Shown here piece after piece: positions 1-60,903 of a stretch of 64,000 nt of DNA. The stretch lies in the NCBI GenBank assembly GCA_963792815.1, contig CAWBXR010000011.1:138036-202035 (forward strand), written 5' to 3'. This stretch comes from an uncultured Gammaproteobacteria bacterium. Lineage in GTDB: Bacteria; Pseudomonadota; Gammaproteobacteria; Pseudomonadales; Halieaceae. Every line of letters starts with the position of its first letter. The stretch's first letter is position 1. A model generated the notes under the pieces. That model did no database searches. It saw nothing but the letters and a program-made list of their open reading frames with translations, and was not told the origin of the DNA. A program made the translations under genes and the position numbers.

Positions 1-1008
1 CGCCAGCGGTTTTCGCCGGCCAATCACTTTTTCGAACACGCCCGCTGGCGGGCCTGGCTGGCGTACCGGGGCGGCGTCGTGGTGGGCCGCATCACTGCCC
101 AGATCGATGAAATGCACCTGCGCCAGCATGCCGATGGGGCAGGCTATTTCGGCATGCTCGAAGCGGAGGATGACCCCGCCGTGTTTGCCGCACTGCTGGA
201 GGCGGCCGCGCAATGGCTGCGCAGCGAGGGTATGCAGCGGGTACGCGGACCCCTGAATCTCCACATCAACGAAGAGGTGGGACTGCTGGTAGACGGCTTC
301 TCGACCCCGCCCTTCGTGTTGATGGGCCATGCTCGCCCCTACTATGGCGCCGGCATCGAAGGGCAGGGCTACCGCGGGGTGAAGGATTTGCTGGCCTACC
401 ATATCCGCCCCGACTTCGAGCCGCCGCGGGTGATGAACAAGCTGGCTGAGCGCGTGTCGGACCGGGTGAAAGTGCGGGCTGTGCGCCGCAAGCACCTGGG
501 GGAGGACGCGCAGATCATGCTCGGTATTTTCAACGATGCCTGGGAGAAAAACTGGGGTTTTGTGCCGCTGGTGGCCTCCGAGTGGGAGGAGACTGTGCGC
601 ACCCTGGCAAAGCTGATGCCGGACGATTACATCCAGATCGCCGAGTACGACGGTGAACCGGTGGCGTTTATAGTGGCACTGCCCAATCTCAACGAGGCCA
701 CGGCGGACCTGAAAGGAAAATTGCTGCCGTTTGGCTGGGCCAAACTGCTGTGGCGGCTCAAGGTGCGCCACCCCCGGACCGCCCGCATACCGCTTATGGG
801 GGTGCGCCAGAGCTTCCAGCATTCGCGCCTGGGGCCTACCCTTGCGTTCATGGTGATAGACGCCGTACGCAAGGCGATGCATGCCCGCGGCGTGAAAAAT
901 GTCGAGATGGGCTGGATCCTCGAGGATAACGATGGCATGCGCAATATCATTGAAACTATCGGTGGGCAGGCGTATAAGCGCTACCGCGTATACGAAAAAG
1001 AGCTTTAG
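1..1008 (+). CDS. GNAT-fold acyltransferase-like protein (5' end cut by window edge)
   Basis: Frame 1 is open from nt 1 (RQRFSPANHFFEHARWRAWLAYRGGVVVGRITAQID...) and runs into ORF 79..1008. The ORF is long and coherent. It resembles the ~380-aa GNAT-like family often mis-annotated as dATP pyrophosphohydrolase (recognised from memory, no search). Confidence 0.6.
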   Translation, partial: RQRFSPANHFFEHARWRAWLAYRGGVVVGRITAQIDEMHLRQHADGAGYFGMLEAEDDPAVFAALLEAAAQWLRSEGMQRVRGPLNLHINEEVGLLVDGFSTPPFVLMGHARPYYGAGIEGQGYRGVKDLLAYHIRPDFEPPRVMNKLAERVSDRVKVRAVRRKHLGEDAQIMLGIFNDAWEKNWGFVPLVASEWEETVRTLAKLMPDDYIQIAEYDGEPVAFIVALPNLNEATADLKGKLLPFGWAKLLWRLKVRHPRTARIPLMGVRQSFQHSRLGPTLAFMVIDAVRKAMHARGVKNVEMGWILEDNDGMRNIIETIGGQAYKRYRVYEKEL

Positions 1009-2866: not shown

Positions 2867-4117
<1,251 letters not shown>

Positions 4118-4118
<1 letters not shown>

Positions 4119-5320
4119 CAGGCGGCCCTGGCCGGCTCGAACAGGCCCGCCTCCTTGAGGCCTGCATAGGCGCTGATAATCCTGTCGATCTGCTCACTGC
4201 TGTGGGCCGCGCTGACACTGTTGCGCAGCAGGAAGTTGGTCGAGGGCGAGGCCGGCGGAATCACCAGGTTGACGTAGACCCCGGCCTCCATCAGCGCCTT
4301 CCAGCAGTCGATGGTGCGGGAGCGATCCACCATTTCCACTGCCACTACCGGGCTGGCGGTGGGGCCTACCGGCAGGTCCAGCGCTTTCAGCCCCTGGTAA
4401 AGCCGGTTGGCGTTATCCCAGACCCGCTGGCGACGCTCGGGCTCCGCGCGGATGATGCGCAGGGCCTCGCGGGTGGAGGCGATCACCGAGGGTGAAGATG
4501 ACGCGGTGAAAATATAGGCCTTGATGCAGAAGCGGATAGCTTCCAGTTCGCTGTGGGGGCTGACACAGAAGCCGCCGATGGAGCCAAGGCTCTTGCTGAA
4601 AGTGCCAACGGTGAAATCCACATCGGCCTCAACCCCAGCGGCCTGCGCGGCGCCGCGACCCGAGTCGCCCAGCACGCCCATGGAGTGAGCCTCGTCCACC
4701 AGCAGGTAGCCGCCGTATTCACGTTTGACCGCGGCGATTTCCTGCAGCGGAGCGACATCGCCCAGCATGGAGTAAATGCCTTCCGCGATGATCAGTGCCT
4801 GGCCCGCACGGTCCCCGAGGCGGCGCATCCGCTTGGCCAGGTCGTCCGGGTCGTTGTGCTTGTAGCGGATGATGTCGGCCTCGCTGAGCTTGACCCCGGA
4901 GTAGATGCTGGCGTGACTGTCCGCGTCCAGCAGTATGACGTCCCCCGGCCCCGCCAGGGTGGCGCACATTCCCATGGTCGCGGCGTAGCCGGTGGAGAAA
5001 ACGATGGCGTTGCTCACGCCGTAAAAGTCCGCTATTTCCCGCTCCAGTGCCTGGTGCTCCGCGAATGAGCCATTGGCCAGGCGCGAACCGGTAGTGCCGG
5101 TGCCCCATTTGGCTGCTGCCTGTTGGGAGGCGGCGATACAGCGCGGGTCGAATGACAGGCCCATGTAGTTGTTGGTACCGGCGAGGATGACCTTGTGGCC
5201 TTCTACCACCCCCTCGGTCGCGGACAGCAGTTGCTCGGTGACGGCACCGAAGGGGACCACTCCGCGTTCGGCGAGTTCGGCCTGAAAGTCGGCCATAGTC
5301 TGGAATTTGTCAAACAGCAT
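4118..5320 (-). CDS. PLP-dependent alpha-oxoamine synthase (Spt/BioF/Kbl family; serine-palmitoyltransferase-like)
   Basis: 400-aa ORF with GTNNYMGLS, LVDEAHSMGVLG and GTFSKSLGSIGGF (Schiff-base Lys context), all typical of the AOS family. Its stop overlaps the murA-like start (TGATG on the minus strand, 4116..4120). A small ACP gene lies directly upstream. Confidence 0.85.
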
Positions 5321-5459: not shown

Positions 5460-5702
5460 TCAGGGGTTGAGTTCCTGGACCTTTACCGCCAGTTCACCGA
5501 TGGTGTTTACGTCGGGCAGGATGTTGAGGGGAATCGAGATGTCGAAGTGATCCTCGATCTTCTCGATGAATTCCATGACCTCCAGGGAACTGAGACCGAT
5601 ATCGGCCACCAGGTGGGTTGATTCCGTCAGTTCAATATTCTTCTTATTTTGTGTTGCGAGAGCGCTGTACAGGAAACCCAGGTATTCTTGGTAATCGGTC
5701 AT
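5460..5702 (-). CDS. acyl carrier protein
   Basis: 80-aa acidic ORF with a DIGLSSLEVMEF phosphopantetheine-attachment Ser motif. It is the first gene of the minus-strand operon. Confidence 0.8.
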   Translation of the reverse strand: MTDYQEYLGFLYSALATQNKKNIELTESTHLVADIGLSSLEVMEFIEKIEDHFDISIPLNILPDVNTIGELAVKVQELNP

Positions 5703-5773: not shown

Positions 5774-6844
5774 ATGGTAATGCCAGTCATTTGGTTGATC
5801 GACGCCTACCGGGCAGGGGAGCAGGGCCAGGTTCGAGCCCTGGTTGATGCCCTCGGCTGGCCTTGCGAAACCAAGCGGCTGACTTACCGCAAACATGTGG
5901 TCCTGCCCCATGTGCTGGGGCTGACGAGCGTGCGTGGAATCAGCACCGAGTCGGTGGCCATGCTGGAGCCGCCCTGGCCGGACCTGGTCATCTCCAGCGG
6001 GGTTCGCAATGAGCCTGTGTGCCGCTGGATTCGCGCACAATCCGGCGGCCATACCCGCTATGTGCACGTTGGTCGACCCTGGGGCCCGCTGGCATCTTTC
6101 GACCTGGTCATCACCACACCCCAGTACAGGGTGCCCCGCCACCCCAACGTGCTGAACAATCTTTTGACCCTGCACAGCGCGACCCCGCAGCGCCTCGCCG
6201 CTGCCCGGGACCAGTGGAGCCCCGCCTTCGCGCATCTGCCGCGGCCCTATATCACCGTTGTCGCCGGTGGCGACAGCGGCCCGTTTACCCTGGGTCCGCT
6301 GGCCGCGAGCCGGCTCGCGCAGCAGGCCTCGGTGCTCGCTCGACAAAGTGGTGGTTCGCTGCTGGTCTCCACCAGTTCGCGCACCAGCGACGAGGCTATC
6401 GCCGCCCTGCAGGCCGGTATCGATGTGCCCAATTACTTTTATCGCTGGCAGCCCTCCGACCCGAAAAACCCCTATTTCGGCATGCTGGCCCTGGCGGACA
6501 GGCTGGTGGTCACCGGCGACAGTATCGCCATGTTGTCCGAAGCCTGCTCCACCGGTCGGCCGGTGCAGATCTTCGACCTGGGGGGAATGCGTGGCGAAAG
6601 CTCTGTTGCCGTTGATTTTCGCATGACTGCCACGCTGTACGCCGGCCTGATGCGCTGGTGCTGGCAGCGCCTGAGTCGCGACATCACCCTGGTACACCGG
6701 GAATTGCGCGCAACCGGCAGGGCATTCTGGATGGATGAGGAGTCAGGCGCCGCAGTGCTGCCGGGGGAGTCAGATATGGACCGGGCCGTGGCGGCGGTGC
6801 AGGGGCTGGTGCCAGCGGACCACCCGACCACGCAAGCTACTTAG
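5774..6844 (+). CDS. ELM1-like (PF06258/COG3660-type) putative GT-B-fold protein, paralog 1
   Basis: ATG at 5774 preceded by GGAAGA, chosen inside ORF 5618..6844. It shares PWPDLVISSG, QSGGHTR and VVTGDSIAML blocks with the ORFs at 11847 and 17141. Confidence 0.7.
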   Translation: MVMPVIWLIDAYRAGEQGQVRALVDALGWPCETKRLTYRKHVVLPHVLGLTSVRGISTESVAMLEPPWPDLVISSGVRNEPVCRWIRAQSGGHTRYVHVGRPWGPLASFDLVITTPQYRVPRHPNVLNNLLTLHSATPQRLAAARDQWSPAFAHLPRPYITVVAGGDSGPFTLGPLAASRLAQQASVLARQSGGSLLVSTSSRTSDEAIAALQAGIDVPNYFYRWQPSDPKNPYFGMLALADRLVVTGDSIAMLSEACSTGRPVQIFDLGGMRGESSVAVDFRMTATLYAGLMRWCWQRLSRDITLVHRELRATGRAFWMDEESGAAVLPGESDMDRAVAAVQGLVPADHPTTQAT

Positions 6845-8582
6845 CCAGCCCGGCCCTGGCAGTATCATCGAGCAGTTGGGCGGTCCCTGCCGACATCTGG
6901 TACACGTAATCCGCCGCCTGCACCAGCGCCCGGTTGTGGGAAATTGCCAGAATCGTCAGCCGTCCCTTGAGGTCTTCCATGGTCTGGCGCACCACCTCCT
7001 CGCTCTCCGGGTCGAGGGCGCTGGTGGCCTCGTCGAGGATCAGCAGTCGCGGCTTGTTGATGAGCGCCCGGGCGATCACGATGCGCTGGCGCTGGCCGCC
7101 GGACAGCTTGCCGCCGCGTTCGCCCACGATGGTGTCCAGCCCGGCGGGGAGGCGGTTGACGAAATCCCAGGCGCCGGCGGCGCGCAGGGCCTCCTCTGCG
7201 GCCGCCAGGTCCAGGTTCGGGTCTCCCAGGGTCACGTTGTGAAGAATGCTGTCGTGCAGCAGTAGCGTGTCCTGGGGTACATAGCCGATCATGCTGCGCC
7301 ACTGCTTGATATTGATCTCGCGCAGGGATACGCCATCGAGCAGCACAGTGCCCTCCTGGGGCTGCAGCAGCGCTATCGACAGGTCGATAATGGTGGTCTT
7401 GCCGGAGCCGGATGGCCCCACCAGCGTGGTCAGCGCCCCCGCCTTGATATCCAGGCACAGGCCGTTGAACACCGGGTGATGCTCATCATAGCCAAAGACT
7501 ACATCCCTGAATTGCAGGCCCTGCTCGAAGTGCGGCGCGATGCCGCCGTCGACGTGCTCCTCCGCCTGGGCGGCGGCATCGATGGAGGCCATCAGTGACC
7601 AGTAGGCGCTTTCGCCCTGGGCCAGCTTCTGGTGCTGTTTCTGGACTTTGCCGAAGAAGGAAAAGGCCCGTCCCAGGGCCACCACCAGGACCATCACCAT
7701 GGCCAGGTCGATGTCGAACTTCTCGATCGCCACCCAGACTCCCAGGCAGATAAAGCCGGTAAACATGAGCTCCTGGGCAGAATCCAGGACCGCGCCGTAC
7801 AGCACCTGGCGGCGCAACGCGCGGTTCAGCTGATTGGTGTCATGGGCCAGCACCTGGTCAGCCAGGTGTTCCCGCGACATGGCCTTGAGGGGCTTCACCG
7901 ATTGCAGGGTGTCCGTCAGGTTCGCCATCAACGAGGACATCAGTCGGGTCTGTCGTTTGCCGGCCTTGCGGGTAAGTCGCACCAGGAAGTGTGACAGCCC
8001 TATCACCACCACCCCTGCGACAATGGCGGCCAGTGAGGCGCGCCAGGAGATGGCGAAGGCCACTGCCCCGTAGACCAGTGCCTGGATCAGGAAGGTGATA
8101 GCGGTGGCGCCGTTGACGAAAGCGGCAGATGAGCGCTGTGCCTCGGTGGCCAGTGCGTTGGTGAGCTTGCCGACCGGCTGGTGCAGGAAGTACTCCCACT
8201 TGCTGCGCAGTACCGCCCGCAGCATCTGCAGGCGCAGGTCGGTGCCGACCTGCGCCGCGGTATACCCCACCTGGCGCTGGGCCAGCAGCAGGAAGGCGCT
8301 TTTCAGGGTCACGCCGAACAGCATGATGCCCAGCATATTGCCGAGTGTGGGCGCGATCCCCACGTAGGCCAGCGCATCGAGCACCGACTGCTCGAATGCG
8401 TTGTCGCTGGCGGGGACGGCGCCGGACAGCATCTCGGTGGCCTCGGAGCCCAGGGCGATATTGACCATGGGCAGCAGCGCCGACAGGCCGATGCCCTCGG
8501 CTACACCCGAAAGCAGCAGGGCCAGCAGCATCAACGTCGTCTGCGACGGGTATGCGCGAAAGAAATTGAGCATCAGGCCCAT
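6837..8582 (-). CDS. ABC exporter, fused permease/ATPase (MsbA-like)
   Basis: 581 aa. The N-terminal half is multi-TM. The C-terminal half has Walker A GPSGSGKTT, signature LSGGQRQR and Walker B LLILDEATSALD. Last gene of the lptF-lptG operon. Its 3' end overlaps the convergent ELM1-like gene by 8 nt. Confidence 0.85.
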   Translation of the reverse strand: MGLMLNFFRAYPSQTTLMLLALLLSGVAEGIGLSALLPMVNIALGSEATEMLSGAVPASDNAFEQSVLDALAYVGIAPTLGNMLGIMLFGVTLKSAFLLLAQRQVGYTAAQVGTDLRLQMLRAVLRSKWEYFLHQPVGKLTNALATEAQRSSAAFVNGATAITFLIQALVYGAVAFAISWRASLAAIVAGVVVIGLSHFLVRLTRKAGKRQTRLMSSLMANLTDTLQSVKPLKAMSREHLADQVLAHDTNQLNRALRRQVLYGAVLDSAQELMFTGFICLGVWVAIEKFDIDLAMVMVLVVALGRAFSFFGKVQKQHQKLAQGESAYWSLMASIDAAAQAEEHVDGGIAPHFEQGLQFRDVVFGYDEHHPVFNGLCLDIKAGALTTLVGPSGSGKTTIIDLSIALLQPQEGTVLLDGVSLREINIKQWRSMIGYVPQDTLLLHDSILHNVTLGDPNLDLAAAEEALRAAGAWDFVNRLPAGLDTIVGERGGKLSGGQRQRIVIARALINKPRLLILDEATSALDPESEEVVRQTMEDLKGRLTILAISHNRALVQAADYVYQMSAGTAQLLDDTARAGLAK

Positions 8583-8653
8583 GTCAGGAGGCTCCGTTCG
8601 TGGGCTGGAATGCCAGGCGGGTAGCGTTTGCGAGAGCGTGGTTCACCGGACAA

Positions 8654-9724
8654 TCACCAGTGCATTCGCCGCAACATGATCGCCGCAAAGATGATAATCA
8701 CCAGTGTGGGCGCCAGGGCGACCAGCGGTATGTTCAGGTTCATCAGTTGCCCGAGGGCAAATACGATCTGTGTCCCCAGGTAGAACAGGATGCCTACCAG
8801 TGCGCCCAGGGCGATGTCCAGGCCGAAGCTGCGATCACGCCGGGCGCCGAGGTTGGCGCTGATGGGGGTGGCCAGCAGAACCATAGCGCCGACGGTCAGT
8901 GGCATCAGCAGTTTCTGCCAGAACATACTGAGGTACTTTTCATTCGGCTGGCCGTTGTCGGCGCGGTACTGGCTGTAACGTCGCAGCACCGAGAGCCGCA
9001 TGCTGTCGCTGTCCAGCGTCAGCGTCGGCAGCTCGTCCGGGGACCACAGGTTGGTGATTTGCAGTTCCCGGTGGCGGCGGTTGACCAGGGTTCCATCCAC
9101 CAGCAGTTTCTCCCGCACCTTCTGGAACAACCAGGTGCGGTCCTTGCTGACCTTCGCGGTCTCCGCATGCAGGGCGCGCGTGAGTTGTCCGGAATCATCG
9201 AACTCGAACAGGTCGATATCCCCGGGTACGCCGTCCTTGTACATTTTTTCGAGGTGAATATAGCGGTTGCCATTTTTCGACCAGACGCCGCCATCGGGGA
9301 TCCTCACCTGGTTGCGGTAGCGCAGGGCGTGCCGCTCCGCCTCCGCGGACTGTTGCAGGGGGGGCGTGACATATTCCATGCACAGCCACAGCACTGCCAT
9401 CATCATGGCGGTGGGCAGGGCGATGGCCCGCATCAGGCGGGCCCGGGACATGCCACTGCAACTCATGATGGTGAGCTCGTTGGAGCGGTCGAGGCTGGCC
9501 AGCGCCACGATGCTGCCCAGCAGGGCGATGACCGGGGACAGGCTCACCAGCTGATGGGGCAGGACAAGCAGGGTGTAGCGCCCCACCGCCAGGGCGTTGT
9601 ATTCGAAGCGGGTATGGTCCAGTTCCTGGACAAAGCCAATCAGGCCGAACACCGCGCCCAGCACCATCAGCACCAGCAGCCACCCCTTGACCAGGTTCGT
9701 CGCAATATAACGCTCGAGTATCAT
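8654..9724 (-). CDS. lptG: LPS export permease LptG (YjgP/YjgQ family)
   Basis: Start taken at the internal ATG 9724 (MILERYIATNLVKGWLLVLMVLG...), which overlaps the lptF stop as ATGA. Membrane profile and N-terminus are typical of LptG. The upstream part of ORF 8654..9985 is antisense-like filler. Confidence 0.8.
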   Translation of the reverse strand: MILERYIATNLVKGWLLVLMVLGAVFGLIGFVQELDHTRFEYNALAVGRYTLLVLPHQLVSLSPVIALLGSIVALASLDRSNELTIMSCSGMSRARLMRAIALPTAMMMAVLWLCMEYVTPPLQQSAEAERHALRYRNQVRIPDGGVWSKNGNRYIHLEKMYKDGVPGDIDLFEFDDSGQLTRALHAETAKVSKDRTWLFQKVREKLLVDGTLVNRRHRELQITNLWSPDELPTLTLDSDSMRLSVLRRYSQYRADNGQPNEKYLSMFWQKLLMPLTVGAMVLLATPISANLGARRDRSFGLDIALGALVGILFYLGTQIVFALGQLMNLNIPLVALAPTLVIIIFAAIMLRRMHW

Positions 9725-10821
9725 CGCCTTCTCATCCACGGCTGCCTGACCAGCACCACCAGCAAAATCAACTGGAAGACATAGGCGCCCCACAGTCCGG
9801 GCAGCTCCCCTATCCGGCCCTGTTCGATACCCGTGCGTACCACGCTGGTCATGGTAAACAGGGCGATGTAAATGCCCACGGCTATCAACACGTTGCGCAT
9901 GCGGGATTCCCTTGGCGCGGACCGGGCCAGGGGCACCGCCATGAGCGCCAGCAGCACCGTGGCAATAGGGGTGGTGACCCGCCACTGGAACTCGGCTATA
10001 TCCTTGGGCTGGTCCGACTGGGACAGGTTGAGGGTGGTCTCCGCCTTGCGCCGGTACTGTTCCTGGGCTTCCTGGTTGTCCATCCGGACGATCAGGTTGT
10101 CGAATTTCAGGGTCAGGTCCTGGCGGTTTTCCAGGTCCAGGAGGTAGTTGTAGCCATTGAAAAACTCGGCCTGCATGGCGTGGCCGGGGTTGAGTACCGG
10201 CAACTCCGCCGCCTCCGCAATGATGATCTCCGAGCGCTTTTGCTCATCGTAATCCTTTTGCAGGAACACGCCCTCGTGGCGGCCCCGATCGAGGTCGAGG
10301 TCATTGGCGATAAATATGTAGTCGCTGCCGCTCATGTTGACGAATTCGCCGGTGGCCATTTTCTTGAGGTCGAACTTGGCTGCGGCCCTGGATTCCAGGT
10401 CATAGCTGGTGCGGAAGGCCCAGGGTCGCCCCAGGATCGATATGGCGCCGGTTACCAGCGCTACGACCAGGGCCAGCTTCAGCACTGCCTCGATAATCCG
10501 CGCCCGGCTGACGCCCGCTGCATACAGCGCGCTCATCTCCGAGTCGCGATACAGCCTGCCGATGGCCGCCAGCACTGAAAAGAAGAACGCCGATGGCATC
10601 AGGATCTCCAGCGTCACCAGTGTGTTCAGGCCAACCAGCTTGAATGCCGTGGTCATTTCGAGCTGGCCGGCCGCGGCTGCCGACAGCTGCTTTGCCGCGG
10701 AGAAACCGATGAATACGAGGATCAGCAGGCCGAGTCCCATCACGAAAGGGCGCAGGATTTCCAGGCTGATGTGGCGGTCGATGATCAAGCGGGTTGAGGT
10801 CCTTTGAGAGCTGCGGGGCAT
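9721..10821 (-). CDS. lptF: LPS export permease LptF (YjgP/YjgQ family)
   Basis: ORF 9721..11100 trimmed to ATG 10821. An alternative TTG at 10788 has an AAGGA Shine-Dalgarno 11 nt upstream. LIIDRHISLEILRPFVMGLGLLILVF is typical of an LptF N-terminus. Confidence 0.75.
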   Translation of the reverse strand: MPRSSQRTSTRLIIDRHISLEILRPFVMGLGLLILVFIGFSAAKQLSAAAAGQLEMTTAFKLVGLNTLVTLEILMPSAFFFSVLAAIGRLYRDSEMSALYAAGVSRARIIEAVLKLALVVALVTGAISILGRPWAFRTSYDLESRAAAKFDLKKMATGEFVNMSGSDYIFIANDLDLDRGRHEGVFLQKDYDEQKRSEIIIAEAAELPVLNPGHAMQAEFFNGYNYLLDLENRQDLTLKFDNLIVRMDNQEAQEQYRRKAETTLNLSQSDQPKDIAEFQWRVTTPIATVLLALMAVPLARSAPRESRMRNVLIAVGIYIALFTMTSVVRTGIEQGRIGELPGLWGAYVFQLILLVVLVRQPWMRRR

Positions 10822-10921: not shown

Positions 10922-11863
10922 ATGTTCAAGCTGAGTGACGGAGTCAAGAAGGCGTTAATTTTGATTCCCACCGAGCCCCTGCCGGCCGGAACCCGGGTGT
11001 CCCTGCGACGCAAATATCTTGCCGAGCTGGAGCTGGCCAAGGCACATGCCGCCAGCTTCCTGATTATCGGCCACCCCAAAAGTGGCAATACCTGGCTCAA
11101 GGTGATGATTTCCAGGCTCTACCAGCTGCGCTATAACCTGCCGGAATCAAAGCTTATCAACACCGACGAATTCGCCCGCAAGATCCCTGAGATTCCGCGC
11201 CTGGCAGCCACCAACGGCTACTACAGTTACGAGGGCGAGGTGGGCAAACTGCTGGCGGTGGACGCCCCGGATAACCCCCTGCGGCACAAGCCGGTAATGT
11301 TCCTGGCCCGCAACCCCATAGATATTGCCGTGTCCTGGTATCACCAGTTTACCAAGCGCCAGTCCCGGGCCAAGCAGGAGCTGATCAACCATTTTATCGA
11401 CCACCCCATCGATCGGAACCAGATCGATATGTGGAATTTCGTGCGCCACTCGGATATCGGCCTGCCCTTTCTCATCGAGTACCAGAATACCTGGGCGCGC
11501 AACGTGGAGCAGCTCGAGAAGGGCCTGCTGGTCAAGTACGAGGAGCTGCGCGCTGAGCCCGTGCCTACCCTGCAGAAGATCATCCAGCTGATGGGTGAGA
11601 GTTTCAGCGAGGAGGAGATCCGGGCGGCGGTGGAGTGGGGCTCTTTTGACAACCTGCAGAAACTCGAGACCAGCGGCACCTTCAGCCAGGGCGGCATGAA
11701 ACTGGTCAACGCCGATGACCCCAGCACTTTCAAAGTGCGCCGGGGCAAGGTCGGCGGTTACCGCGAGGACTTTCCGCCCGAGCAGGTAGCCGAGCTGGAA
11801 GCCCTGGTGCGCGCCAATATCCTGCCGCAGCTGGGCTATTGCCAGGATGGCGCGGAGTCCTGA
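10922..11863 (+). CDS. PAPS-dependent sulfotransferase-domain protein, paralog 1 (most divergent)
   Basis: 5'-PSB loop GHPKSGNTWL, 3'-PB motif LARNPIDIAVSWY and C-terminal FKVRRGKVGGYREDF. It overlaps the next gene by 17 nt. Confidence 0.8.
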   Translation: MFKLSDGVKKALILIPTEPLPAGTRVSLRRKYLAELELAKAHAASFLIIGHPKSGNTWLKVMISRLYQLRYNLPESKLINTDEFARKIPEIPRLAATNGYYSYEGEVGKLLAVDAPDNPLRHKPVMFLARNPIDIAVSWYHQFTKRQSRAKQELINHFIDHPIDRNQIDMWNFVRHSDIGLPFLIEYQNTWARNVEQLEKGLLVKYEELRAEPVPTLQKIIQLMGESFSEEEIRAAVEWGSFDNLQKLETSGTFSQGGMKLVNADDPSTFKVRRGKVGGYREDFPPEQVAELEALVRANILPQLGYCQDGAES

Positions 11864-12968
11864 CTTGGCCGCCCCCCGGACCTGGGTCATCCTCAGTGAC
11901 AAGCAGGGCGACAACGGACAGGTAGAAACCATTGTCGACGCCCTGCCCTGGCCGGTGGAGCACAAGTATGTCCACATGTTGCCCCAGTGGGTGCTGGGCA
12001 AGCCGCGCTACCGCCCCTCGCTGGATCACATCGATCCGGAGCAGTCCGACCCCATTGAGGCGCCCTGGCCCGACCTGATTCTCACGGTTGGCCGGCGCCC
12101 GTCAATGGTGGCCCTGTGGATCCGCCAGCAATCCGGCGGCAGGACCAGGATCGTGCTGGTGGGCAAGCCCTCTGGCCATATGCTGGATTTCTCCCTGGTG
12201 GTCGCCAGCGCCGAGAACCAGATGCCGCCGATGGATAACTTCCTGCCCACCACGCTGCCCCTGATGCGGATCAGTGAGGCCGATGTGGCCGCCGAGGCCG
12301 AGGCCTGGCGGGAGCGCTTTGCGCCGCTCGACAAGCCGCTGATTGCCATGCTGATCGGTGGCGAAACCAATCCCTTCATCATGAATCGCAAGGTGGCCCA
12401 GGACCTCGTGGCAACTGCCCACTGGGTGGTGGACGAGCTCGGGGGGACCCCTTACGTTACAACCAGCCGGCGCACCACGCCGGAGGTGGTCGAGGTATTG
12501 CGGCGGGACCTGCCGCCCCAGGCCCAGTTTTTCGAGTGGGCGGCAGGCTCACCGGACAACCCCTACCGCGCCCTGCTGGGCAGCGCCGACGGCTTTATCG
12601 TCACCGGCGACAGCGTGTCGATGATGGTGGAGGTTATTTACCTGCATAAGCCCCTGGCCATATTCCCACTGCCCGGAGGCGCCCTGGGCAGTATCGACCA
12701 GCTGCGCCGCTCCCTGGCCCACTGGCTGTTCAACCCGAAGCTGGAGTCACTCGGCGACCGCCTGCGCCGTCGCCTGGCCCGGGGTGTCTACTACATCGAT
12801 GTGTTCAAGATTCTGTGCGCCACCCGGGACTTCCGGGCCTTTCACCGGATGCTGGTGGCACAGGGGCTGGCGGTCTGGGCGGGACAGCCCTTTCGCCGCA
12901 CGGCCGCCGAACTGCCGGACGATGTCGGCACGGTTGTCAGGCGGATAGAGGCGTTGTTCCCGGGCTGA
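11847..12968 (+). CDS. ELM1-like putative GT-B-fold protein, paralog 2
   Basis: Shares the PWPDLILTVG, QSGGRTR and IVTGDSVSMM blocks with the paralogs at 5774 and 17141. Confidence 0.7.
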   Translation: MARSPDLAAPRTWVILSDKQGDNGQVETIVDALPWPVEHKYVHMLPQWVLGKPRYRPSLDHIDPEQSDPIEAPWPDLILTVGRRPSMVALWIRQQSGGRTRIVLVGKPSGHMLDFSLVVASAENQMPPMDNFLPTTLPLMRISEADVAAEAEAWRERFAPLDKPLIAMLIGGETNPFIMNRKVAQDLVATAHWVVDELGGTPYVTTSRRTTPEVVEVLRRDLPPQAQFFEWAAGSPDNPYRALLGSADGFIVTGDSVSMMVEVIYLHKPLAIFPLPGGALGSIDQLRRSLAHWLFNPKLESLGDRLRRRLARGVYYIDVFKILCATRDFRAFHRMLVAQGLAVWAGQPFRRTAAELPDDVGTVVRRIEALFPG

Positions 12969-20205: not shown

Positions 20206-21144
20206 TTACTTGAATATACCGCGGCGGTAGAGGCCCCAGAAGAATCCCCACAGGTAGATGAGCGGGGCTCGCCTGACCTTGTCGGGAATGACGATGTTCT
20301 CCCCGGAATGCCGTTCCAGTTTCCACGCGATATAATCCAGTCCCCCCTCGAACGTAAACAACGCTTTTACCAATCTCATTATTGAGAGCAGTTTCCCCTG
20401 GCCCCGGCGCAGCGTCCACGCAATCCGCGTAAACAACTGGCTGCTCCGAGCAGTTGCACTGCGGTAGCTCATTTGGCCGCCGACATCATACACCGTAAAG
20501 CCAAAGCCAAGCGAGGGGGACAATTGCCGGGTAACTTCGGCATAGAAGTCGGCGGCGGCCAGGGCCAGTTCGGTAGCCCTGCCCGGGCGCTCGGTGCGCA
20601 GCTCGGTCGAGTAGCTAAGGGCCAGGGCCTGCTCCCACAGGCTGGTCACGGTGCCCTGGGGCGGCAGCACCGGCAGGGTGTTGTGCAACAGCGTCCGGGA
20701 GGCCTGCAGCAGGCAGTGTTCCAGTCCCTGCCGGGTCTGCGCGTCGCGGCTGTAGACGATTCTGGTGGGCTGGGCGAAACGGCCCCAGATATAGGACTCA
20801 AACCAGGCCCGGGAGCAGCCGCGCCGGAAATCCCGCAGGGAAATAACCGTCACCTTGCTGCGCAGGGTCTTGTTCGCCAGCTTGTGCTCCGCGTAGAACA
20901 CGTTCGGTGGCAGCAGCCAGTTGGCCCCCGCCAGCAGCGGCTTGCGGTAGGCTGCGCGGTAGCCGTCGCAGATCAGGTAGAGATCCAGCAGGCCGTCGTA
21001 GATATCGCCGCTGCGCAGGCAGGAGCCGTAGAGCAGGATGCCGCAGATAGCGTCGTGGTGGCGCGCCCGTAATTGCCCCAGCAGCGCCGCCAGGGCGGGG
21101 TCGCTGGCGGCGTCGGGGCCGGCTACATGCGGGTAATCGCTCAC
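20206..21144 (-). CDS. Tam41/Mmp37-like putative lipid-phosphate nucleotidyltransferase (weak assignment)
   Basis: ORF 20206..21348 trimmed to the in-frame GTG at 21144, which overlaps the upstream kinase stop as GTGA. ILLYGSCLRSGD...GLLDLYLIC and VFYAEH...KVTVISLRDF...YIWGRFAQPTRIV recall the Tam41 (PF09139) pattern. This is recognition from memory only. Confidence 0.4.
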   Translation of the reverse strand: MSDYPHVAGPDAASDPALAALLGQLRARHHDAICGILLYGSCLRSGDIYDGLLDLYLICDGYRAAYRKPLLAGANWLLPPNVFYAEHKLANKTLRSKVTVISLRDFRRGCSRAWFESYIWGRFAQPTRIVYSRDAQTRQGLEHCLLQASRTLLHNTLPVLPPQGTVTSLWEQALALSYSTELRTERPGRATELALAAADFYAEVTRQLSPSLGFGFTVYDVGGQMSYRSATARSSQLFTRIAWTLRRGQGKLLSIMRLVKALFTFEGGLDYIAWKLERHSGENIVIPDKVRRAPLIYLWGFFWGLYRRGIFK

Positions 21145-22106
21145 AGGGTGAGAAAGTCCAGGGGCTCGCTGGCGCAGATATCGACCGGCCCGTTTGCCAC
21201 CAGTATTTCCCCGTCGAGGTTCAGTTTGCCATCGAGTTGCAGGCGTATCCGCTGGGCATTGTGGCTGAGATAGCCCGATCCGGATACAGCGTTGCGGTTC
21301 GGCCTGCCCCTGACAATCGACAGGAAAGTGCGGGCGAAGCGGCTGCAACCCTGCTGGAACAGCGTGAGGCGGATCGCGCCGGGGCCGGAACCCCAGAACG
21401 GGCGCATGCCGAAAGCCAGGCGCTGCAGGGTGCTGATCGCCAGGATCAGGGTGTCGTAGCTGGCAGCCCCGCCGTCATCGAGTGTCAGTTCAATACTGAC
21501 ATGGCGGTTGAAGGCCGGGTCGTTGCGGAGCAAACCCCATACAGTGCGCAGGGTTGTCAGGGCCAGGCTGAAATCGTCCCGCAGGCCGCGGGCGTGCACC
21601 TCCTTGTGGGCGTATTCGGTACCCTGGATGATCGCCCCGCCGCCGAGGAACATCCCGTAGCGGGCGGGCTGGTCAGCGCCGAGCTCCACCCGCATAAGCG
21701 CTCGCTGGGCGAGCATGCCCGCGGTTGCGCGCTCGCCCTCGCACCAGTGGCAGAAGCGTTCGGTGGCTTTCCACAGGGAGCCGCTGACACCGATATCGCC
21801 GGCGTTCATGTTGGCGGTGCCGCCCGGCAGGAGCACGATGATGGGCGGGGTTTCGAACAGGCCGCTTTCCAGCAGCTCGCCCAGTATGTTCGAGGCTGTG
21901 CCGTCTCCCCCGTTGATCGCCAGCACTCCCACCCGGGTCTGGGCCAGCTCCGCCAGGGCCGGCCCGACGTCGTCCAGGCTGTGGGTAACTATGTGGTGGA
22001 TCGAGGGACAGCGGGCGATGCGGTTGCGGATGCGTTCGAACTGGTCGCGGTTATGGCCGCTGCCAGGGTTGCTGATCAGCCCCACCGGGCCGGCGGCCCT
22101 GCTCAC
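21141..22106 (-). CDS. DAG-kinase-catalytic-domain lipid kinase (YegS/BmrU-like)
   Basis: GLISNPGSGHN, LAINGGDGT and LLPGGTANM motifs. The GTG start overlaps the upstream stop (GTGA at 22103..22106). Confidence 0.8.
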   Translation of the reverse strand: MSRAAGPVGLISNPGSGHNRDQFERIRNRIARCPSIHHIVTHSLDDVGPALAELAQTRVGVLAINGGDGTASNILGELLESGLFETPPIIVLLPGGTANMNAGDIGVSGSLWKATERFCHWCEGERATAGMLAQRALMRVELGADQPARYGMFLGGGAIIQGTEYAHKEVHARGLRDDFSLALTTLRTVWGLLRNDPAFNRHVSIELTLDDGGAASYDTLILAISTLQRLAFGMRPFWGSGPGAIRLTLFQQGCSRFARTFLSIVRGRPNRNAVSGSGYLSHNAQRIRLQLDGKLNLDGEILVANGPVDICASEPLDFLTL

Positions 22107-22969
22107 TCAGCGGCTTCCCGCAGGGTCGCCGACTTGAGGTTGATTTCGGCATTGCCGATCCGCGGCGCGGTGCCGCGCAATTGCACCGGCAGGCTGTTGG
22201 TCACGTCAAACAGCACGGTGATGTCACCGGCGCCGTCCAGGCCCAGCAGGCTGAAGTCGGGCTTTTCCGCCAGTTCACCCAGGGGGCTGACTTGCAGCGT
22301 CACGCCTCGGGTCTCGCGCTTGCCCGTTACCGCCGCGGCGCCCTGCAGCTGGTAGTTCATCTCGATGGTGGGCCCTTCGCCACGGCTCATTTGCACCCGG
22401 TAAAAATTGAATTCAGTGTTCACCACCGCCTCGGTCGAGGTCTGGTCCGAGTCCAGGAAGCGACCCGCGAGATCGAGCAGGGCGTAGGCGTCGGTCACCA
22501 CCATGCCCGAGGCGGCTGGGGGGTAGGGTATCTTGTGGCGACTGCTAACCGGCCACTCGGCCGGTGGCAGATCCGTTTTGGCTGGTGGGTCATGGCGCAC
22601 CCGCAAAATGTCCTTGGGTCGGAACGCATAGGTCTTGTAGCGCTGCTGCTTGCCCTTGCTGAAGCGCGACCGGTACAGTGCGCGGCCGTCAGCCGGCGCC
22701 AGGTCCAGCACCACCACCTCGACGTTGCTGGCTACCGAGCTGTCAGCCTTGAGCTGCCAGCGCCCGGCGTCCTCGCTGTGTTCGCCAATCTCCACCCGCG
22801 ACCTGGCGGTGACAAAGTACGCCTGCTGTTCGTATTCCAGTACCTGCCAGGCCGGCAGTGGCGGCAGCGCCTCCTTTGAGTTGCCGGCGGCTGCGGCAGG
22901 CAGGCTCGCGAGGGCGGCCGCCGACAGCAGGCAGCAGTGGATAAGCGGGTTACGGGTTATTCTTGTCAT
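22103..22969 (-). CDS. exported hypothetical protein
   Basis: 288 aa with an N-terminal signal peptide (LIHCCLLSAAALASLPAAAAG). ATGA overlap with the upstream ligase-like gene. No family confidently recognised. Confidence 0.6.
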   Translation of the reverse strand: MTRITRNPLIHCCLLSAAALASLPAAAAGNSKEALPPLPAWQVLEYEQQAYFVTARSRVEIGEHSEDAGRWQLKADSSVASNVEVVVLDLAPADGRALYRSRFSKGKQQRYKTYAFRPKDILRVRHDPPAKTDLPPAEWPVSSRHKIPYPPAASGMVVTDAYALLDLAGRFLDSDQTSTEAVVNTEFNFYRVQMSRGEGPTIEMNYQLQGAAAVTGKRETRGVTLQVSPLGELAEKPDFSLLGLDGAGDITVLFDVTNSLPVQLRGTAPRIGNAEINLKSATLREAAE

Positions 22970-24141
22970 TGGTCATGTCCAGGGTAGCGAGCCTTTGCCG
23001 GCAGGTGGCTGGCCGGGTAGGTGGCCATGATAAGCGCCACGGGCAGCCAGAAAAACAGCCACAGTTCCTTGGGCTGAACGAACAGCCGGTCGTAGTCCAT
23101 GGCGACAGATGTCGTACCGTATAGGAGTAGCGCCAGGTAGATTCGTTCCCCGCGCTGGCGATACATCTGCCAGGCCTGGTAGGCGGCTACCGCGAGCAGG
23201 GCCAGCAACAGCGCCAGTCCCACCAGGCCGCCGTCGCGCAGTGTGGCCAGATAACTGTTGTGGGCATGGTCGAACAGCTTGCCGTAGGCCGGAACCCTGG
23301 GGTCGATCAGGTAGCCGTGACCAAACCACCAGTAGCCCTGCATGTCTGTCAGCACCTGCTGCCAGATGCCGGGACGAAAGGAGAAATCGCCGACCCGGTG
23401 CAGCCAGAGGCTGGAGTTGGTGGCCATCACCGCCCACATCGTGGCGACACCGGCCGCAGCCACTCCCAGCGCCCGGTAACCGAGCAGCACCAGCAGGCCG
23501 ACACAGACCCCGGCCATGGCCGTGCGCGACTGGGTGAACACAATCAGGCACAGGATTGCCAGGGACAGCGAAGCGTATACCCACCTGTTTTCCCGTCCTC
23601 GCTGCGTGAATACGTAGTGCATGCACAACACCAGGAAAATGCCGTAGGCGGAGGCCGCCTTGTTCTGGTGGTGCATTACGCCCAGGGGTTCCAGTCGGGA
23701 TTCGGGAAAGGGATTCTGCAGGTACCAGGCCGCGATCGACACCACGGCGGCGGCGGCCGCCAGCCAGGTGGCGCGATGGGCCAGCAGGTCCATCAGGCTG
23801 GCCTGGCGCACCCACAGGTAACCGCTGATAAAGCAGAAGCTCAGGACGCACAGGGCATAGCCCGCCGCCTGCAGTGCCGGCAGCAGTTCAAAGTCCGCCG
23901 TCCACAGCAGGCTGCTCATCATGTAGCAGCAGTAGAGCAGAAGCAGCAGCGCGAGTGTGTTGGCGCGGTAGAACTGTGCCAGTTCGCGCCACAGCACCAG
24001 GACGGCGGGCAGCACCAGGACGTAGTAGACCTTGCGGTGGCCCGAGGCCATGGGCAGCAGGAAGTAACCGGCGATGAATACGGCGTAAAAGTACACCATT
24101 CCCCGGTCCAACAGGAATCGCTGAAATGCCTTGAAATCCAT
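22966..24141 (-). CDS. O-antigen ligase (Wzy_C) family membrane protein
   Basis: 391 aa and polytopic. Contains FTQSRTAMAGVCVGLLVLLGY and HAHNSYLATLRDGGLVGL, characteristic of WaaL/Wzy_C proteins. First gene of the six-gene minus-strand operon. Confidence 0.75.
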   Translation of the reverse strand: MDFKAFQRFLLDRGMVYFYAVFIAGYFLLPMASGHRKVYYVLVLPAVLVLWRELAQFYRANTLALLLLLYCCYMMSSLLWTADFELLPALQAAGYALCVLSFCFISGYLWVRQASLMDLLAHRATWLAAAAAVVSIAAWYLQNPFPESRLEPLGVMHHQNKAASAYGIFLVLCMHYVFTQRGRENRWVYASLSLAILCLIVFTQSRTAMAGVCVGLLVLLGYRALGVAAAGVATMWAVMATNSSLWLHRVGDFSFRPGIWQQVLTDMQGYWWFGHGYLIDPRVPAYGKLFDHAHNSYLATLRDGGLVGLALLLALLAVAAYQAWQMYRQRGERIYLALLLYGTTSVAMDYDRLFVQPKELWLFFWLPVALIMATYPASHLPAKARYPGHDQ

Positions 24142-58432: not shown

Positions 58433-59658
58433 ATGTCACCTGGGTACTGGCCTGGCGCAACCTGTGGCGCCACCGGCGCCGCACCTGGCTCACGGTCGGC
58501 GCCATGGTGTTTTCCAATGTACTGCTGATCTTCCTGGTGTCGCTGCAGTTGGGCTCCTACCAGATGATGATCGACGGCAGCCTGGCGAGCTTCACCGGCC
58601 ATATCCAGGTCCAGCACAGGGATTACCTCGAACAACAGCATATGTACCAGGACGTGCCGGCGGTCAGCGCGCTGGCCGGGCAGCTGCGAGCGCTGCCCGG
58701 CGTCGAGGCTGCATCCGCCCGGGCCGAGGCCTTCGCCCTCGCCTCCAGCGCCGAACGCTCTTTCGGTATCCTGTTGACGGGCGTGCAGCCCGATACTGAG
58801 CCGGCGGTGTCGACATTTCCGGGCAAGCTGAGCGATGGCCGCTACCTGAACAGCAGCGACGAGGAGGCCATCGTCATCGGCAGCGTGCTGGCCCGGAACC
58901 TGAAAGTGGGCGTGGGTGACGAGCTGACCTTCCTGGGCAGCGGCCGCGACGGCTCCTTTGCCGCCGGGGTGGCCACCGTCGTGGGTATCATCGACTCCGG
59001 CCTGGAGGAGGTCGACCGCAACATGGCGCAGGTACCGCTGGGCTGGTTCCAGCAGGTCTTCGCCATGGGCGACGCCGGCCACGCGGTGGTGGTGAGGGCG
59101 TCCTCCCTTGAGCAGGTGCAGTCCACGGCAGGCGCATTGCGTGCGCTGCCCGCGCCGGGAGATGAGCTGGCCGTGCTCGACTGGGAGACTCTTGTGCCCG
59201 GGCTGCGCCAGGCTATCCAATCCGATATGACCAGCGCCTGGTTTACCTACAGCGTGCTGGTGGTGCTGGTGGCCTTCGGCGTACTCAATACCCAGCTGAT
59301 GTCGGTGCTGGAGCGTACCCGCGAATTCGGCGTGATGCTGGCGCTGGGCATGAGCCCCGGGCGGCTGGCCCGACTGGTGGGTATCGAGACCCTGCTGCTG
59401 GCGGCGCTGGGGCTGGGGCTGGGGCTGCTCGGCGGAGGCCTGCTCAGCTGGTACCTGAGCGTTGCCGGTTTCATCTACCCCGGGGTCGAGGAAATGATGG
59501 AGCGGTTCATGCTGGGCGGGCGCATCTATCCCGAGGTGAGCCTGGTTTCCATGCTGATCGGGCCGCTGGCGGTGTTTGTCGGCGCGATGCTGGCCGCCCT
59601 GTACCCGGCGCTGCGCCTGTTCAGGTTGCGCCCCGTGGCCGCCATGCAGGCCAGCTGA
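58429..59658 (+). CDS. FtsX/LolCE-like ABC transporter permease 1
   Basis: The GTG start overlaps the upstream stop (GTGA). LAWRNLWRHRRRTWLTVGAMVF N-terminus, large periplasmic loop and C-terminal FtsX-type TM bundle. Confidence 0.8.
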   Translation: MNVTWVLAWRNLWRHRRRTWLTVGAMVFSNVLLIFLVSLQLGSYQMMIDGSLASFTGHIQVQHRDYLEQQHMYQDVPAVSALAGQLRALPGVEAASARAEAFALASSAERSFGILLTGVQPDTEPAVSTFPGKLSDGRYLNSSDEEAIVIGSVLARNLKVGVGDELTFLGSGRDGSFAAGVATVVGIIDSGLEEVDRNMAQVPLGWFQQVFAMGDAGHAVVVRASSLEQVQSTAGALRALPAPGDELAVLDWETLVPGLRQAIQSDMTSAWFTYSVLVVLVAFGVLNTQLMSVLERTREFGVMLALGMSPGRLARLVGIETLLLAALGLGLGLLGGGLLSWYLSVAGFIYPGVEEMMERFMLGGRIYPEVSLVSMLIGPLAVFVGAMLAALYPALRLFRLRPVAAMQAS

Positions 59659-60890
59659 TGTCCCTGCCCCTCACGGCCCTGTCCACCCTCGCCTGGCGCA
59701 ATCTATGGCGCAATCACCGGCGCACCCTGATCATGCTTGCCGCTATTGCGATCGGCGTGTGGGCCATGATTTTCATGGCGGCGCTGATGCGCGGCATGAC
59801 CGACCAGATGGTGCGCAATGGCTTGCAAACCCTGCCCGGGGAGGTGCAGCTGCACCAGCGGGATTATCGCCGGGACCCCAGCGTGGTGAACTCGATGGCG
59901 CCCCCGGTGGCTGAGCTGCTTGACGTGCTGCAGTCCGCCCCGGTAACCGCCTGGGCTAGCCGGGTGCGGGTACCGGCGGTGATCAGCAGTGAGCGGGGCA
60001 GCCGCAGCGTCACCCTGCTGGGTGTTGATCCGGAAGCTGAGCAGGCCCTCGGGTCACTGCCCGGGGACCTGCTGCAGGGGCGAAGCCTGGAGGGAGAAGA
60101 CGACCGGGGCCTGGTGATCGGCGCCAGCCTTGCCCGACGCCTGGAGACCGGCCTGGGCAAAAGGGTTGTAGTAATGTCCCAGGACCCGGACAACAACGTG
60201 GCGGAGCGGGGTGCCCGGATCGTCGGCATCTACCGCGGCCGGCTGCAGGGAAACGAGGACCGGTTCGTCTACGCCGGTCGCGCGGTGGTGCAGGAGCTGC
60301 TGGGTATCGGGCAGCAGATATCGGAAATCGCCGTTAGCGGCGATGACTACCGCCGGGTCGCTGACTGGTACCCGGCAGTTGCCGCCGCCGCGGGCAGTGA
60401 GCTCGAGACCCTGACCTGGACCGAGCTCGATCCTTTCCTGGGCAGTATGCTGGCGGTACAGGACGGCTTTACCCTGGTATTCATGGTGGTGGTGTTTCTC
60501 GCCCTGTCCTTCGGCCTGGTGAATACCCTGGTGATGGCGGTATTCGAGCGGGTGCGGGAGATCGGGCTGATGCAGGCCCTGGGGATGCGCCCCGGCCTCA
60601 TCCTGGGCCAGATCATGCTGGAGAGCCTGTTCCTGCTGTGCCTGGGGCTGCTGCTGGGCAACCTGCTGGCAGTGCTGACCATAGCACCGCTGGCCGGGGG
60701 CATCGACATTTCCAGTGTCGCCCAGGGAATGGAAATCATGGGCATGAGCGCCACCCTTTACCCCGCGCTGCATATCCAGGACATGCTGATGTCCACCGCC
60801 GTGGTAATCACCCTGGGGCTGCTCGCCAGCCTCGCACCGGCGTGGCGAGCTTCCCGGCTCGACCCGGTGGCGGCGTTGACCCGGGATTGA
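59658..60890 (+). CDS. FtsX/LolCE-like ABC transporter permease 2
   Basis: The ATG overlaps the upstream stop (TGATG). LAWRNLWRNHRRTLIMLAAIAIGVW N-terminus and the same architecture as permease 1. Confidence 0.8.
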   Translation: MSLPLTALSTLAWRNLWRNHRRTLIMLAAIAIGVWAMIFMAALMRGMTDQMVRNGLQTLPGEVQLHQRDYRRDPSVVNSMAPPVAELLDVLQSAPVTAWASRVRVPAVISSERGSRSVTLLGVDPEAEQALGSLPGDLLQGRSLEGEDDRGLVIGASLARRLETGLGKRVVVMSQDPDNNVAERGARIVGIYRGRLQGNEDRFVYAGRAVVQELLGIGQQISEIAVSGDDYRRVADWYPAVAAAAGSELETLTWTELDPFLGSMLAVQDGFTLVFMVVVFLALSFGLVNTLVMAVFERVREIGLMQALGMRPGLILGQIMLESLFLLCLGLLLGNLLAVLTIAPLAGGIDISSVAQGMEIMGMSATLYPALHIQDMLMSTAVVITLGLLASLAPAWRASRLDPVAALTRD

Positions 60891-60903
60891 GAGGTTACTT
60901 TTA

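Follow-up and report, generated by a model that had tools for sequence, protein, structure and literature searches.

In a window of 64,000 nucleotides from the genome of an uncultured Halieaceae bacterium (source genome G000; contig C11, positions 138036-202035), three genes, lptF, lptG and an ATP-binding cassette (ABC) exporter gene, probably encode the inner-membrane export stage of the ceramide (sphingolipid) locus that surrounds them, a reading to which we assign a probability of roughly 0.6. The system is of a known kind, the sphingolipid-locus LptF2/LptG2 already published for Caulobacter. We found no literature description, however, of an ABC flippase candidate linked to spt, the gene for serine palmitoyltransferase, of the replacement of canonical LptFG in a producer of lipopolysaccharide (LPS), or of a natural loss of the LptC-interface arginine in LptF. 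The assembly of G000 comprises 4.0 Mb in 22 contigs and is 99.6% complete; coordinates are window positions (Table 1) unless a contig or locus is named.

A trio of export genes within a ceramide locus

Family models and Pfam domains agree with the initial annotation, which had recognised lptF, lptG and a fused permease/ATPase gene from the letters of the window. PF03739 covers both permeases over their full length (model matches 1-353 and 2-351), and both pass their equivalog cut-offs by a small margin, the canonical LptG proteins of relatives reaching ~400 bits on TIGR04408. Alignments to solved structures show that the coupling-helix glutamate is kept in LptF (..RDSEMSAL.. opposite ..ESEMTVL..) as well as in LptG (..RSNELTIM.. 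opposite ..RSELVVM..), where E. coli has LptF E84 and LptG E88, the residues that engage LptB.

The layout is likewise as first described: the three genes are co-directional, lptF and lptG share a 4-nt, ATGA-type overlap, 71 nt separate lptG from the ABC gene, and lptF lies divergently beside sulfotransferase 1, a PF00685 gene. In related loci with the same arrangement, which we call the cassette, the overlap recurs in 17 of 18 scored cases, and the gap between lptG and the ABC gene measures 6-82 nt, on the same strand, in 18 of 19. We looked for a terminator-like hairpin in the 71-nt spacer and found none; the trio may well be co-transcribed.

At a distance of 3.3 kb from lptG lies spt, whose product scores twice as high against a solved serine palmitoyltransferase (Table 1) as it does against KBL and AONS (~200 bits each). 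Judged by its gene content, the island is a Caulobacter-type ceramide gene set with extra head-group enzymes (PMC11324152, PMC12275187), and lptFG are encoded within this ceramide-synthesis locus, as LptF2/LptG2 are. We had also considered an LPS core or outer-core region, suggested by ELM1/GtrOC1, GT2 and WaaL-like matches, and dropped it after the Spt result and the recovery of the full ceramide gene set.

The ABC exporter is not MsbA

The ABC gene encodes a protein of 581 residues in which a transmembrane domain (TMD; ABC_membrane) is fused to a nucleotide-binding domain (NBD; ABC_tran). Walker A (GPSGSGKTT), the signature motif (LSGGQRQR), Walker B (LLILDEA) and the H-loop histidine are all intact in the translation, making the product a half-transporter of the type IV ABC exporters. 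The description of this exporter as MsbA-like in the initial annotation fits the architecture, but does not extend to the identity of the protein. On models of MsbA, which flips lipid A-core across the inner membrane, it scores 242 bits (TIGR02203, cut-off 602) and 189 bits (NF008381, cut-off 867), and a genome-wide count located the true MsbA of G000 on another contig (C7:85117-86892, 699 bits). By these scores the window exporter is not MsbA. It also stays below every other curated equivalog cut-off that we ran, among them those of its best NCBIfam model, HepA, a polysaccharide exporter (290 bits, cut-off 725), and of PglK (208 bits, cut-off 1000). Among solved half-transporters PglK gives the best match (175 bits), and MsbA one of 165 bits.

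Closer relatives are encoded directly after spt on plasmid pPNP1 of Pseudomonas sp. JS425 and on a P. veronii plasmid, with 44% identity over the full length. The window protein is the best G000 match of both (454 vs 162 bits), and the other ABC exporters of G000, which has ~5 full-length ones of type IV, are only ~31% identical to it. The window protein and the spt-linked Pseudomonas proteins form an orthologue group of their own. With MsbA, PglK and HepA it shares the TMD-NBD organisation and intact ATPase motifs, and flipping of a lipid-anchored substrate is plausible; it differs from them in falling under all their cut-offs and in belonging to the spt-linked group.

LptF and LptG group with sphingolipid-locus pairs

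Trees of LptF and of LptG both split into four clades. Clade A is canonical, encoded beside valS-holC-pepA, and includes E. coli K-12 and most of the order; clade B is a second pair beside a MOP gene in six genomes; clade C is the cassette, with the window pair and its relatives; and SL-gamma unites pairs from annotated sphingolipid loci (the E. coli yghO locus, Rahnella and two Pseudomonas plasmids). In a tree of concatenated LptF and LptG (726 columns), the split of C and SL-gamma from A and B received support of 99/97.7, and the approximately unbiased (AU) test on the same alignment rejected a union of C with A (p 0.015) as well as with B (p 0.007). Quick trees, for which constrained searches outscored the free search, were replaced by careful searches and by this concatenated alignment. 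In the concatenated tree the window pair groups with sphingolipid-locus LptF/LptG rather than with the canonical pepA-linked pair, at ~30-33% identity to SL-gamma proteins and 26-30% to canonical ones.

The clade-B pair is an extra pair in its six hosts (G021, G009, G004, G018, G008 and G026; loci L036-L041, e.g. L036:6100-10459), and a MOP/Wzx-type gene invariably stands divergently next to it, with homology (111-115 bits) to the MOP genes of the sphingolipid loci in E. coli, Rahnella and Roseomonas. Further genes around the pair encode an AspAT-like aminotransferase, a thiamine pyrophosphate (TPP) enzyme, an arginase-family protein, an Fe-ADH, a Sulfotransfer_5 protein and a PEMT-like methyltransferase. 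We rejected the aminotransferase as an Spt-like enzyme, as it is AspAT-like and no alpha-oxoamine synthase. A different exporter-lptFG neighbourhood was seen in G045 (L028, G045:C1:1494000-1513999), where a very divergent sole lptF-lptG follows ~1 kb after an unrelated ABC exporter gene (162 bits against the window protein), with a heptosyltransferase nearby.

The window pair is the sole LptFG of an LPS-pathway genome

The initial annotation had left open whether a second lptFG pair exists. G000 has one pair, that of the window: both PF03739 matches of the genome lie there, and tblastn of G000 with clade-A and clade-B proteins returned the window pair only (28-34% identity) and no relics. In relatives lptFG sit between pepA and a gene of 112 aa, and those of E. 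coli K-12 are also pepA-linked. The pepA site of G000 (C12:307454-309256) keeps the flanking genes, in the same order as in relatives, with lptFG missing, and the window pair stands away from the canonical position, in which valS-holC-pepA is divergent from lptF-lptG. Canonical lptFG has been lost cleanly from the pepA site of G000. A sole clade-C pair is not explained by an assembly gap, since two single-contig genomes (G024 and G033) hold clade C alone.

The LPS pathway is kept, as G000 has LpxC, WaaA, MsbA, a WaaC/WaaF pair of heptosyltransferases, LptA and LptD. With the canonical pair gone and this pathway retained, the window LptF-LptG would have to extract LPS as well, and one extractor probably serves both outer-membrane lipids, LPS and sphingolipid. 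Exactly one LptB is encoded in 60 of 61 genomes, whether these have one or two LptFG pairs, and G000 also has a single LptB. Canonical pepA-linked and clade-C pairs coexist in five relatives (G014, G019, G023, G032 and G042); G000, having one pair only, does not show the LptF2/LptG2 hallmark of a second pair beside canonical LptFG.

These results bear on both possibilities that had been raised at the outset, each of which proves partly right. A dedicated flippase/extractor set is favoured by the lineage, by the sphingolipid-locus context and by the coexistence with a canonical pair in five relatives, but not by G000 itself, in which the pair is alone. Housekeeping lptFG captured in a core-biosynthesis region would agree with an only pair and a retained LPS pathway, but the setting is not that of an LPS core.

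The cassette is conserved in relatives

Conservation was followed in 60 relatives, 20 fetched loci and 80 species-level loci. Among the 60 relatives, an orthologue of the ABC gene (59-96% identity) occurs in 20 of 21 genomes of the same genus; beyond the genus it reaches 8 of the family's 15 other genera, and two further families. It always abuts a low-scoring LptG (~237-290 bits) where both share a contig, and genomes without it have only a canonical, ~400-bit LptG. All 20 fetched loci present one order: metallophosphoesterase, MurA-like gene, spt, ELM1a, ABC-lptG-lptF on the opposite strand, sulfotransferase and ELM1b. The synteny test proposed in the initial annotation gave the same picture across the species-level loci, with lptF-lptG before the ABC gene wherever enough upstream DNA was available (73/73), and ELM1a and spt after it wherever enough downstream DNA was (71/71). 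Adjacency of lptG and the ABC gene spans at least three families of the order, and across genomes the cassette is accompanied by three ELM1 paralogues.

Two observations had been named beforehand as speaking against a dedicated set, namely that these be the only lptFG genes of the genome and that relatives without sulfotransferase genes have the same arrangement. The first is what we found, but the second is not, the arrangement within Halieaceae being almost always accompanied by sulfotransferases. Sulfation is nevertheless not the link, since lptFG and the ABC orthologue also occur in the Pseudomonas plasmid loci, where the stretch examined has no annotated sulfotransferase; the trio is part of the island's ceramide core. 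We also rejected the idea that the cassette tracks inner-core heptosyltransferases, which are present in the genus of G000 and absent in other cassette-bearing genera.

In one relative (G016:C8:431848-433583) the ABC orthologue is read in two overlapping frames (residues 1-251 and 246-581), a frameshift or assembly error in a 74%-complete metagenome-assembled genome (MAG). A cassette of 75% identity in a MAG labelled Bacteroidia (L077, JBLFXU010000006.1) probably reflects a binning error. The Halieaceae MAG bin.783 (L052/L126, JAZBNW01) has two cassette copies, of 96% and 68% identity, on separate contigs, and copies that differ this much suggest a mixed bin.

Beyond these samples, a word-indexed search for distant LptG relatives returned Halieaceae-like proteins only, and a representative search gave a graded family, in which ~85 clusters exceed the bit score that canonical LptG of the same family had obtained when the fetched loci were searched separately. 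Look-ups of the LptG-like clusters led to uncultured Pseudomonadales MAGs only. A phylum sample contained 26 Spt-positive genomes.

Non-canonical LptFG pairs travel with an ABC or a MOP gene

Sorting the loci by the flippase-type gene near lptFG revealed an either/or pattern. The ABC gene is present without a MOP gene in 19 cassette loci and 2 Pseudomonas loci, a MOP gene without the ABC gene in 3 sphingolipid loci (E. coli, Rahnella and Roseomonas) and 6 clade-B loci, and neither is nearby in 14 canonical loci. The MOP genes of E. coli, Rahnella and Roseomonas are mutually homologous and annotated 'LPS biosynthesis protein'; a homologue was sought in G000, and none was found. The pattern suggests a general rule, that each non-canonical LptFG pair, as in every case examined, travels with one flippase-type gene beside it, ABC or MOP, and it argues for a required function. 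In Caulobacter the MOP protein CC_1166 has been proposed as the sphingolipid flippase by Olea-Ozuna et al., and it is without an orthologue in beta- and gamma-proteobacterial clusters (PMC11324152). By its position and its relatives, the window ABC gene is a natural and concrete candidate for this gap, the missing sphingolipid flippase of gamma-proteobacteria.

The closest described system is the LptF2/LptG2 pair of Caulobacter crescentus (CCNA_01214/01213 = CC_1156/CC_1155), which binds the sole LptB of the cell and becomes essential only if the cell makes anionic sphingolipid (bioRxiv 10.64898/2026.04.12.717747). As in the window, that pair lies inside a locus with spt, acp, cerR, acyl-ligase and ceramide-synthase genes, and has no LptB of its own, the genome encoding a single one. 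Caulobacter, however, keeps both LptFG pairs, whereas the window pair is the only one beside a retained LPS pathway; the MOP gene CC_1166 is found there instead of an ABC half-transporter; and LptC2 was not seen here. Sphingomonas wittichii also has its sole LptFG beside sphingolipid genes (bioRxiv 10.64898/2026.04.12.717747), but it is without LpxC, LpxB and WaaA and makes no LPS. G000 has LpxC, WaaA, MsbA and WaaC/F, so that, unlike in Sphingomonas, its single pair would have to cope with LPS too.

The E. coli yghO-yghT, Rahnella and Pseudomonas plasmid loci (NZ_MG591698.1, CP042359.1, NZ_CP073662.1 and LT599585.1) have LptFG pairs in one clade with that of the window, Spt proteins that are 55-56% identical, and a core of acyl-AMP ligase, CerR, ACP and spt. 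The orthologous ABC gene of the Pseudomonas loci follows spt and not lptG, whereas E. coli and Rahnella have the MOP gene in its stead; no sulfotransferase is annotated in the stretches examined, and the hosts keep canonical lptFG. Compared with canonical LptB2FG(C) of E. coli and Pseudomonas (PDB 6MHU, 5X5Y and 9DOH), the window pair has the full-length fold, the beta-jellyroll region and the coupling-helix glutamates, but at 26-30% identity, away from pepA, with asparagine for LptF Arg212 and with several basic residues lost.

A full ceramide-type locus stands between yghO and yghS in some E. coli, as in NZ_MG591698.1 (L132, 11116-20125 of the locus), with genes for an acyl-AMP ligase, an epimerase, ACP, Spt, a second lptG-lptF, a YtfJ-family protein and a MOP protein; the record is labelled plasmid, yet its neighbours are chromosomal (glc, pitB, gss and hyb). 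A YtfJ homologue (35% identity) is also encoded in G000, away from the window (C12:94719-95219). Searching E. coli genomes by blastn with spt gave nothing, and no literature on serine palmitoyltransferase in UTI89 was found. On pPNP1 (L133) and on the P. veronii plasmid (L136) the sphingolipid module is plasmid-borne and consists of ELM1, metallophosphoesterase, kinase, lptG-lptF, nucleotidyltransferase, ligase, CerR, ACP, Spt and ABC genes. On pPNP1, an IncP plasmid, IS5 and Tn3 elements interrupt the module and border it, so that it looks mobile.

A proposed export route and its alternatives

In the route that we propose, a ceramide lipid would be built on the cytoplasmic face by Spt, ACP, the CerR-like reductase, the acyl-AMP ligase and the GNAT-fold protein, and would be decorated by the products of the kinase, nucleotidyltransferase, ELM1, glycosyltransferase and sulfotransferase genes. 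A homodimer of the ABC protein would flip it to the periplasmic leaflet, as MsbA does for lipid A-core, taking the place held in Caulobacter- and E. coli-type loci by a MOP-family candidate flippase. LptF-LptG, powered by the single LptB, would then take the lipid out of the membrane and hand it on to LptA and LptD (LptDE), a step that would match Caulobacter LptF2G2 with LptB (bioRxiv 10.64898/2026.04.12.717747), and the same LptF-LptG, the canonical pair being deleted, would also extract LPS.

Several points weigh against this reading. What it says of the substrates, of the flipping role, of LptB use, of a dual service to LPS and sphingolipid and of co-transcription is read from sequence and gene context. 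The relatives are mostly MAGs. The groups tested in the phylogeny were named after a first look at the tree, the trees are without Caulobacter LptF2/LptG2, and their sole alpha-proteobacterial pair, from Roseomonas, is so extremely divergent that it cannot be placed. LptF by itself gives a weaker tree (C with SL-gamma at 97/94; AU test against C with A, p 0.07), and in the LptG tree the support for C with SL-gamma falls to 63/19. Finally, with HepA as the best family model and PglK as the best solved match of the ABC protein, and with a Wzy_C/WaaL-like gene and several glycosyltransferase genes in the island, a lipid-linked glycan stays a possible substrate of the exporter.

The last point is the basis of an alternative that we consider unlikely, although it survives best: LptF-LptG would be an ordinary housekeeping LPS extractor in a surface-glycan region, and the ABC protein a PglK/HepA-like flippase for an undecaprenyl-linked, possibly sulfated oligosaccharide, which the WaaL-like ligase would attach to lipid A-core. 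The GT2, ELM1 and sulfotransferase genes of the island would suit such a pathway, as would the status of the pair as the sole lptFG of the genome. The HepA score is, however, far under its cut-off, and on the Pseudomonas plasmids the ABC orthologue follows spt in loci whose annotation, over the stretch examined, lists neither a WaaL-like nor a sulfotransferase gene, while LptF-LptG themselves group with sphingolipid-locus proteins and coexist with a canonical pair in five relatives.

It is less probable still that the ABC protein is a second, specialised MsbA for a modified lipid A-core (e.g. with extra acyl chains or sulfate) and that the trio serves LPS only. The MsbA architecture, the match to solved MsbA and an LpxL-family acyltransferase gene just upstream of the window could be taken in its favour, but the bona fide MsbA is encoded elsewhere, the window protein reaches well under half of the MsbA cut-off and is closer to the spt-linked exporters than to the others of G000 (44% vs ~31% identity), and its linkage to spt is strict (71/71 loci). 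That an unrelated drug or peptide exporter came to lie next to lptG by chance or hitch-hiking is very improbable: type IV ABC exporters are numerous and promiscuous, but at least three families of the order keep the adjacency, distant Pseudomonas plasmids again have the gene beside spt, and the ABC-or-MOP pattern argues for a required function.

Loss of the LptC-interface arginine in LptF

The column of E. coli LptF R212 aligns cleanly within a G-x-R-[YF] motif. It holds arginine in 14 of 15 clade-A sequences, asparagine, histidine, leucine or alanine in clade C, and alanine or serine in SL-gamma. The window LptF, with N225, lacks the LptC-interface arginine of canonical LptF, and further basic residues of the canonical clade are lost in clade C, namely K30 and R9 of LptF and K108 and R308 of LptG. 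In E. coli the substitutions R212G, R212S and R212C allow life without LptC (PMC4986956, PMC9972910).

The lpt operon of G000 (G000:C1:131822-135228) reads yrbG-kdsD-lptA-lptB-rpoN, with 158 nt between kdsD and lptA; as lptA comes directly after kdsD, kdsC and lptC do not occupy their usual place. Queries of G000 with E. coli LptC and KdsC by phmmer, lists of weak hits and hydrophobicity-filtered candidates yielded neither protein, by a method too insensitive for a claim of absence. Even P. aeruginosa LptC scores only 22 bits against that of E. coli, and because LptC diverges this fast its absence from G000 is not established.

A wider reading, which we regard as possible if on balance doubtful, is that in many Halieaceae LptF2G2 took over all extraction from the inner membrane, of LPS and of a sulfated ceramide glycolipid, with a single LptB, an LptC-free hand-off to LptA, and two flippases, MsbA for lipid A-core and the spt-linked ABC protein for the ceramide lipid, the latter being the missing sphingolipid flippase of gamma-proteobacteria. 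The LptC-free hand-off is suggested here by an LptF that is naturally without the arginine whose loss bypasses LptC in E. coli.

In the route of bacterial sphingolipids across the inner membrane to the outer membrane, LptF2/LptG2 have been implicated only in 2024-2026. The loci described here amount to a natural experiment, in which common coastal bacteria with LPS synthesis have only the sphingolipid-type LptFG and close relatives hold both pairs. Their comparison bears on the substrate specificity of LptFG, an antibiotic target, and possibly on the need for LptC.

Genes of the surrounding island

Table 1. The export trio and other features of the window, with the model or structure match by which each was assigned.
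Feature	Position	Strand	Evidence
lptF, sphingolipid-locus type (clade C)	9721-10821	-	TIGR04407 266 bits (cut-off 230)
lptG, sphingolipid-locus type (clade C)	8654-9724	-	TIGR04408 269 bits (cut-off 240)
lptG-ABC spacer	8583-8653	-	71 nt
ABC half-transporter (TMD-NBD), candidate flippase	6837-8582	-	PF00664 66 bits, PF00005 112 bits
GNAT-fold gene, bCerS-like ceramide synthase candidate	1-1008	+	PF00583, weak
Metallophosphoesterase	1917-2846
EPSP-synthase-fold (MurA-like) gene	2867-3865
spt, serine palmitoyltransferase	4118-5320	-	416 bits to Sphingomonas wittichii SPT 2x8u
Acyl carrier protein (ACP) of the ceramide pathway	5460-5702	-	PF00550 38.8 bits
ELM1a, ELM1/GtrOC1-family transferase-like, convergent with the ABC gene	5774-6844	+	PF06258 203 bits
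Sulfotransferase 1	10922-11863	+	PF00685 83 bits
ELM1b, ELM1/GtrOC1-family	11847-12968	+	PF06258 171 bits
DAGK-fold lipid kinase, in the position of Caulobacter ceramide kinase CpgB	21141-22106	-	PF00781 46.7 bits
Wzy_C (WaaL-like) gene	22966-24141		family match
Candidate lolC-lolD-lolE	59658-62862		layout

The pairing of the acyl carrier protein (ACP) gene with spt is also seen in the E. coli, Pseudomonas, Rahnella and Roseomonas loci. A nucleotidyltransferase gene, like the ACP and GNAT-fold genes, lies beside spt. The GNAT-fold gene starts 134 nt before the window, and the same place is held by yghO or an N-acetyltransferase gene in the E. coli, Rahnella and P. veronii loci. For ELM1a, whose frame is open from 5618, we took the first ATG that precedes the Pfam match as the start. 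The DNA directly upstream of the window encodes an acyl-AMP ligase, a CerR-like epimerase, an LpxL-like acyltransferase, a fatty-acid hydroxylase and a further sulfotransferase. The downstream island contains three ELM1/GtrOC1-family genes, four PF00685 sulfotransferase genes, a GT2 gene, the kinase gene and the Wzy_C gene.

The DAGK-fold kinase gene has a Tam41-like neighbour, and on pPNP1 a kinase gene adjoins lptG. By analogy with Caulobacter, the product of the window gene may act as a ceramide kinase (PMC12275187).

The MurA-like and metallophosphoesterase genes that follow spt are kept with the cassette in most related loci. Near the far end of the window, three co-directional genes encode proteins of 410, 234 and 417 aa, the middle one an ABC ATPase, and by this layout they are candidates for lolC, lolD and lolE.

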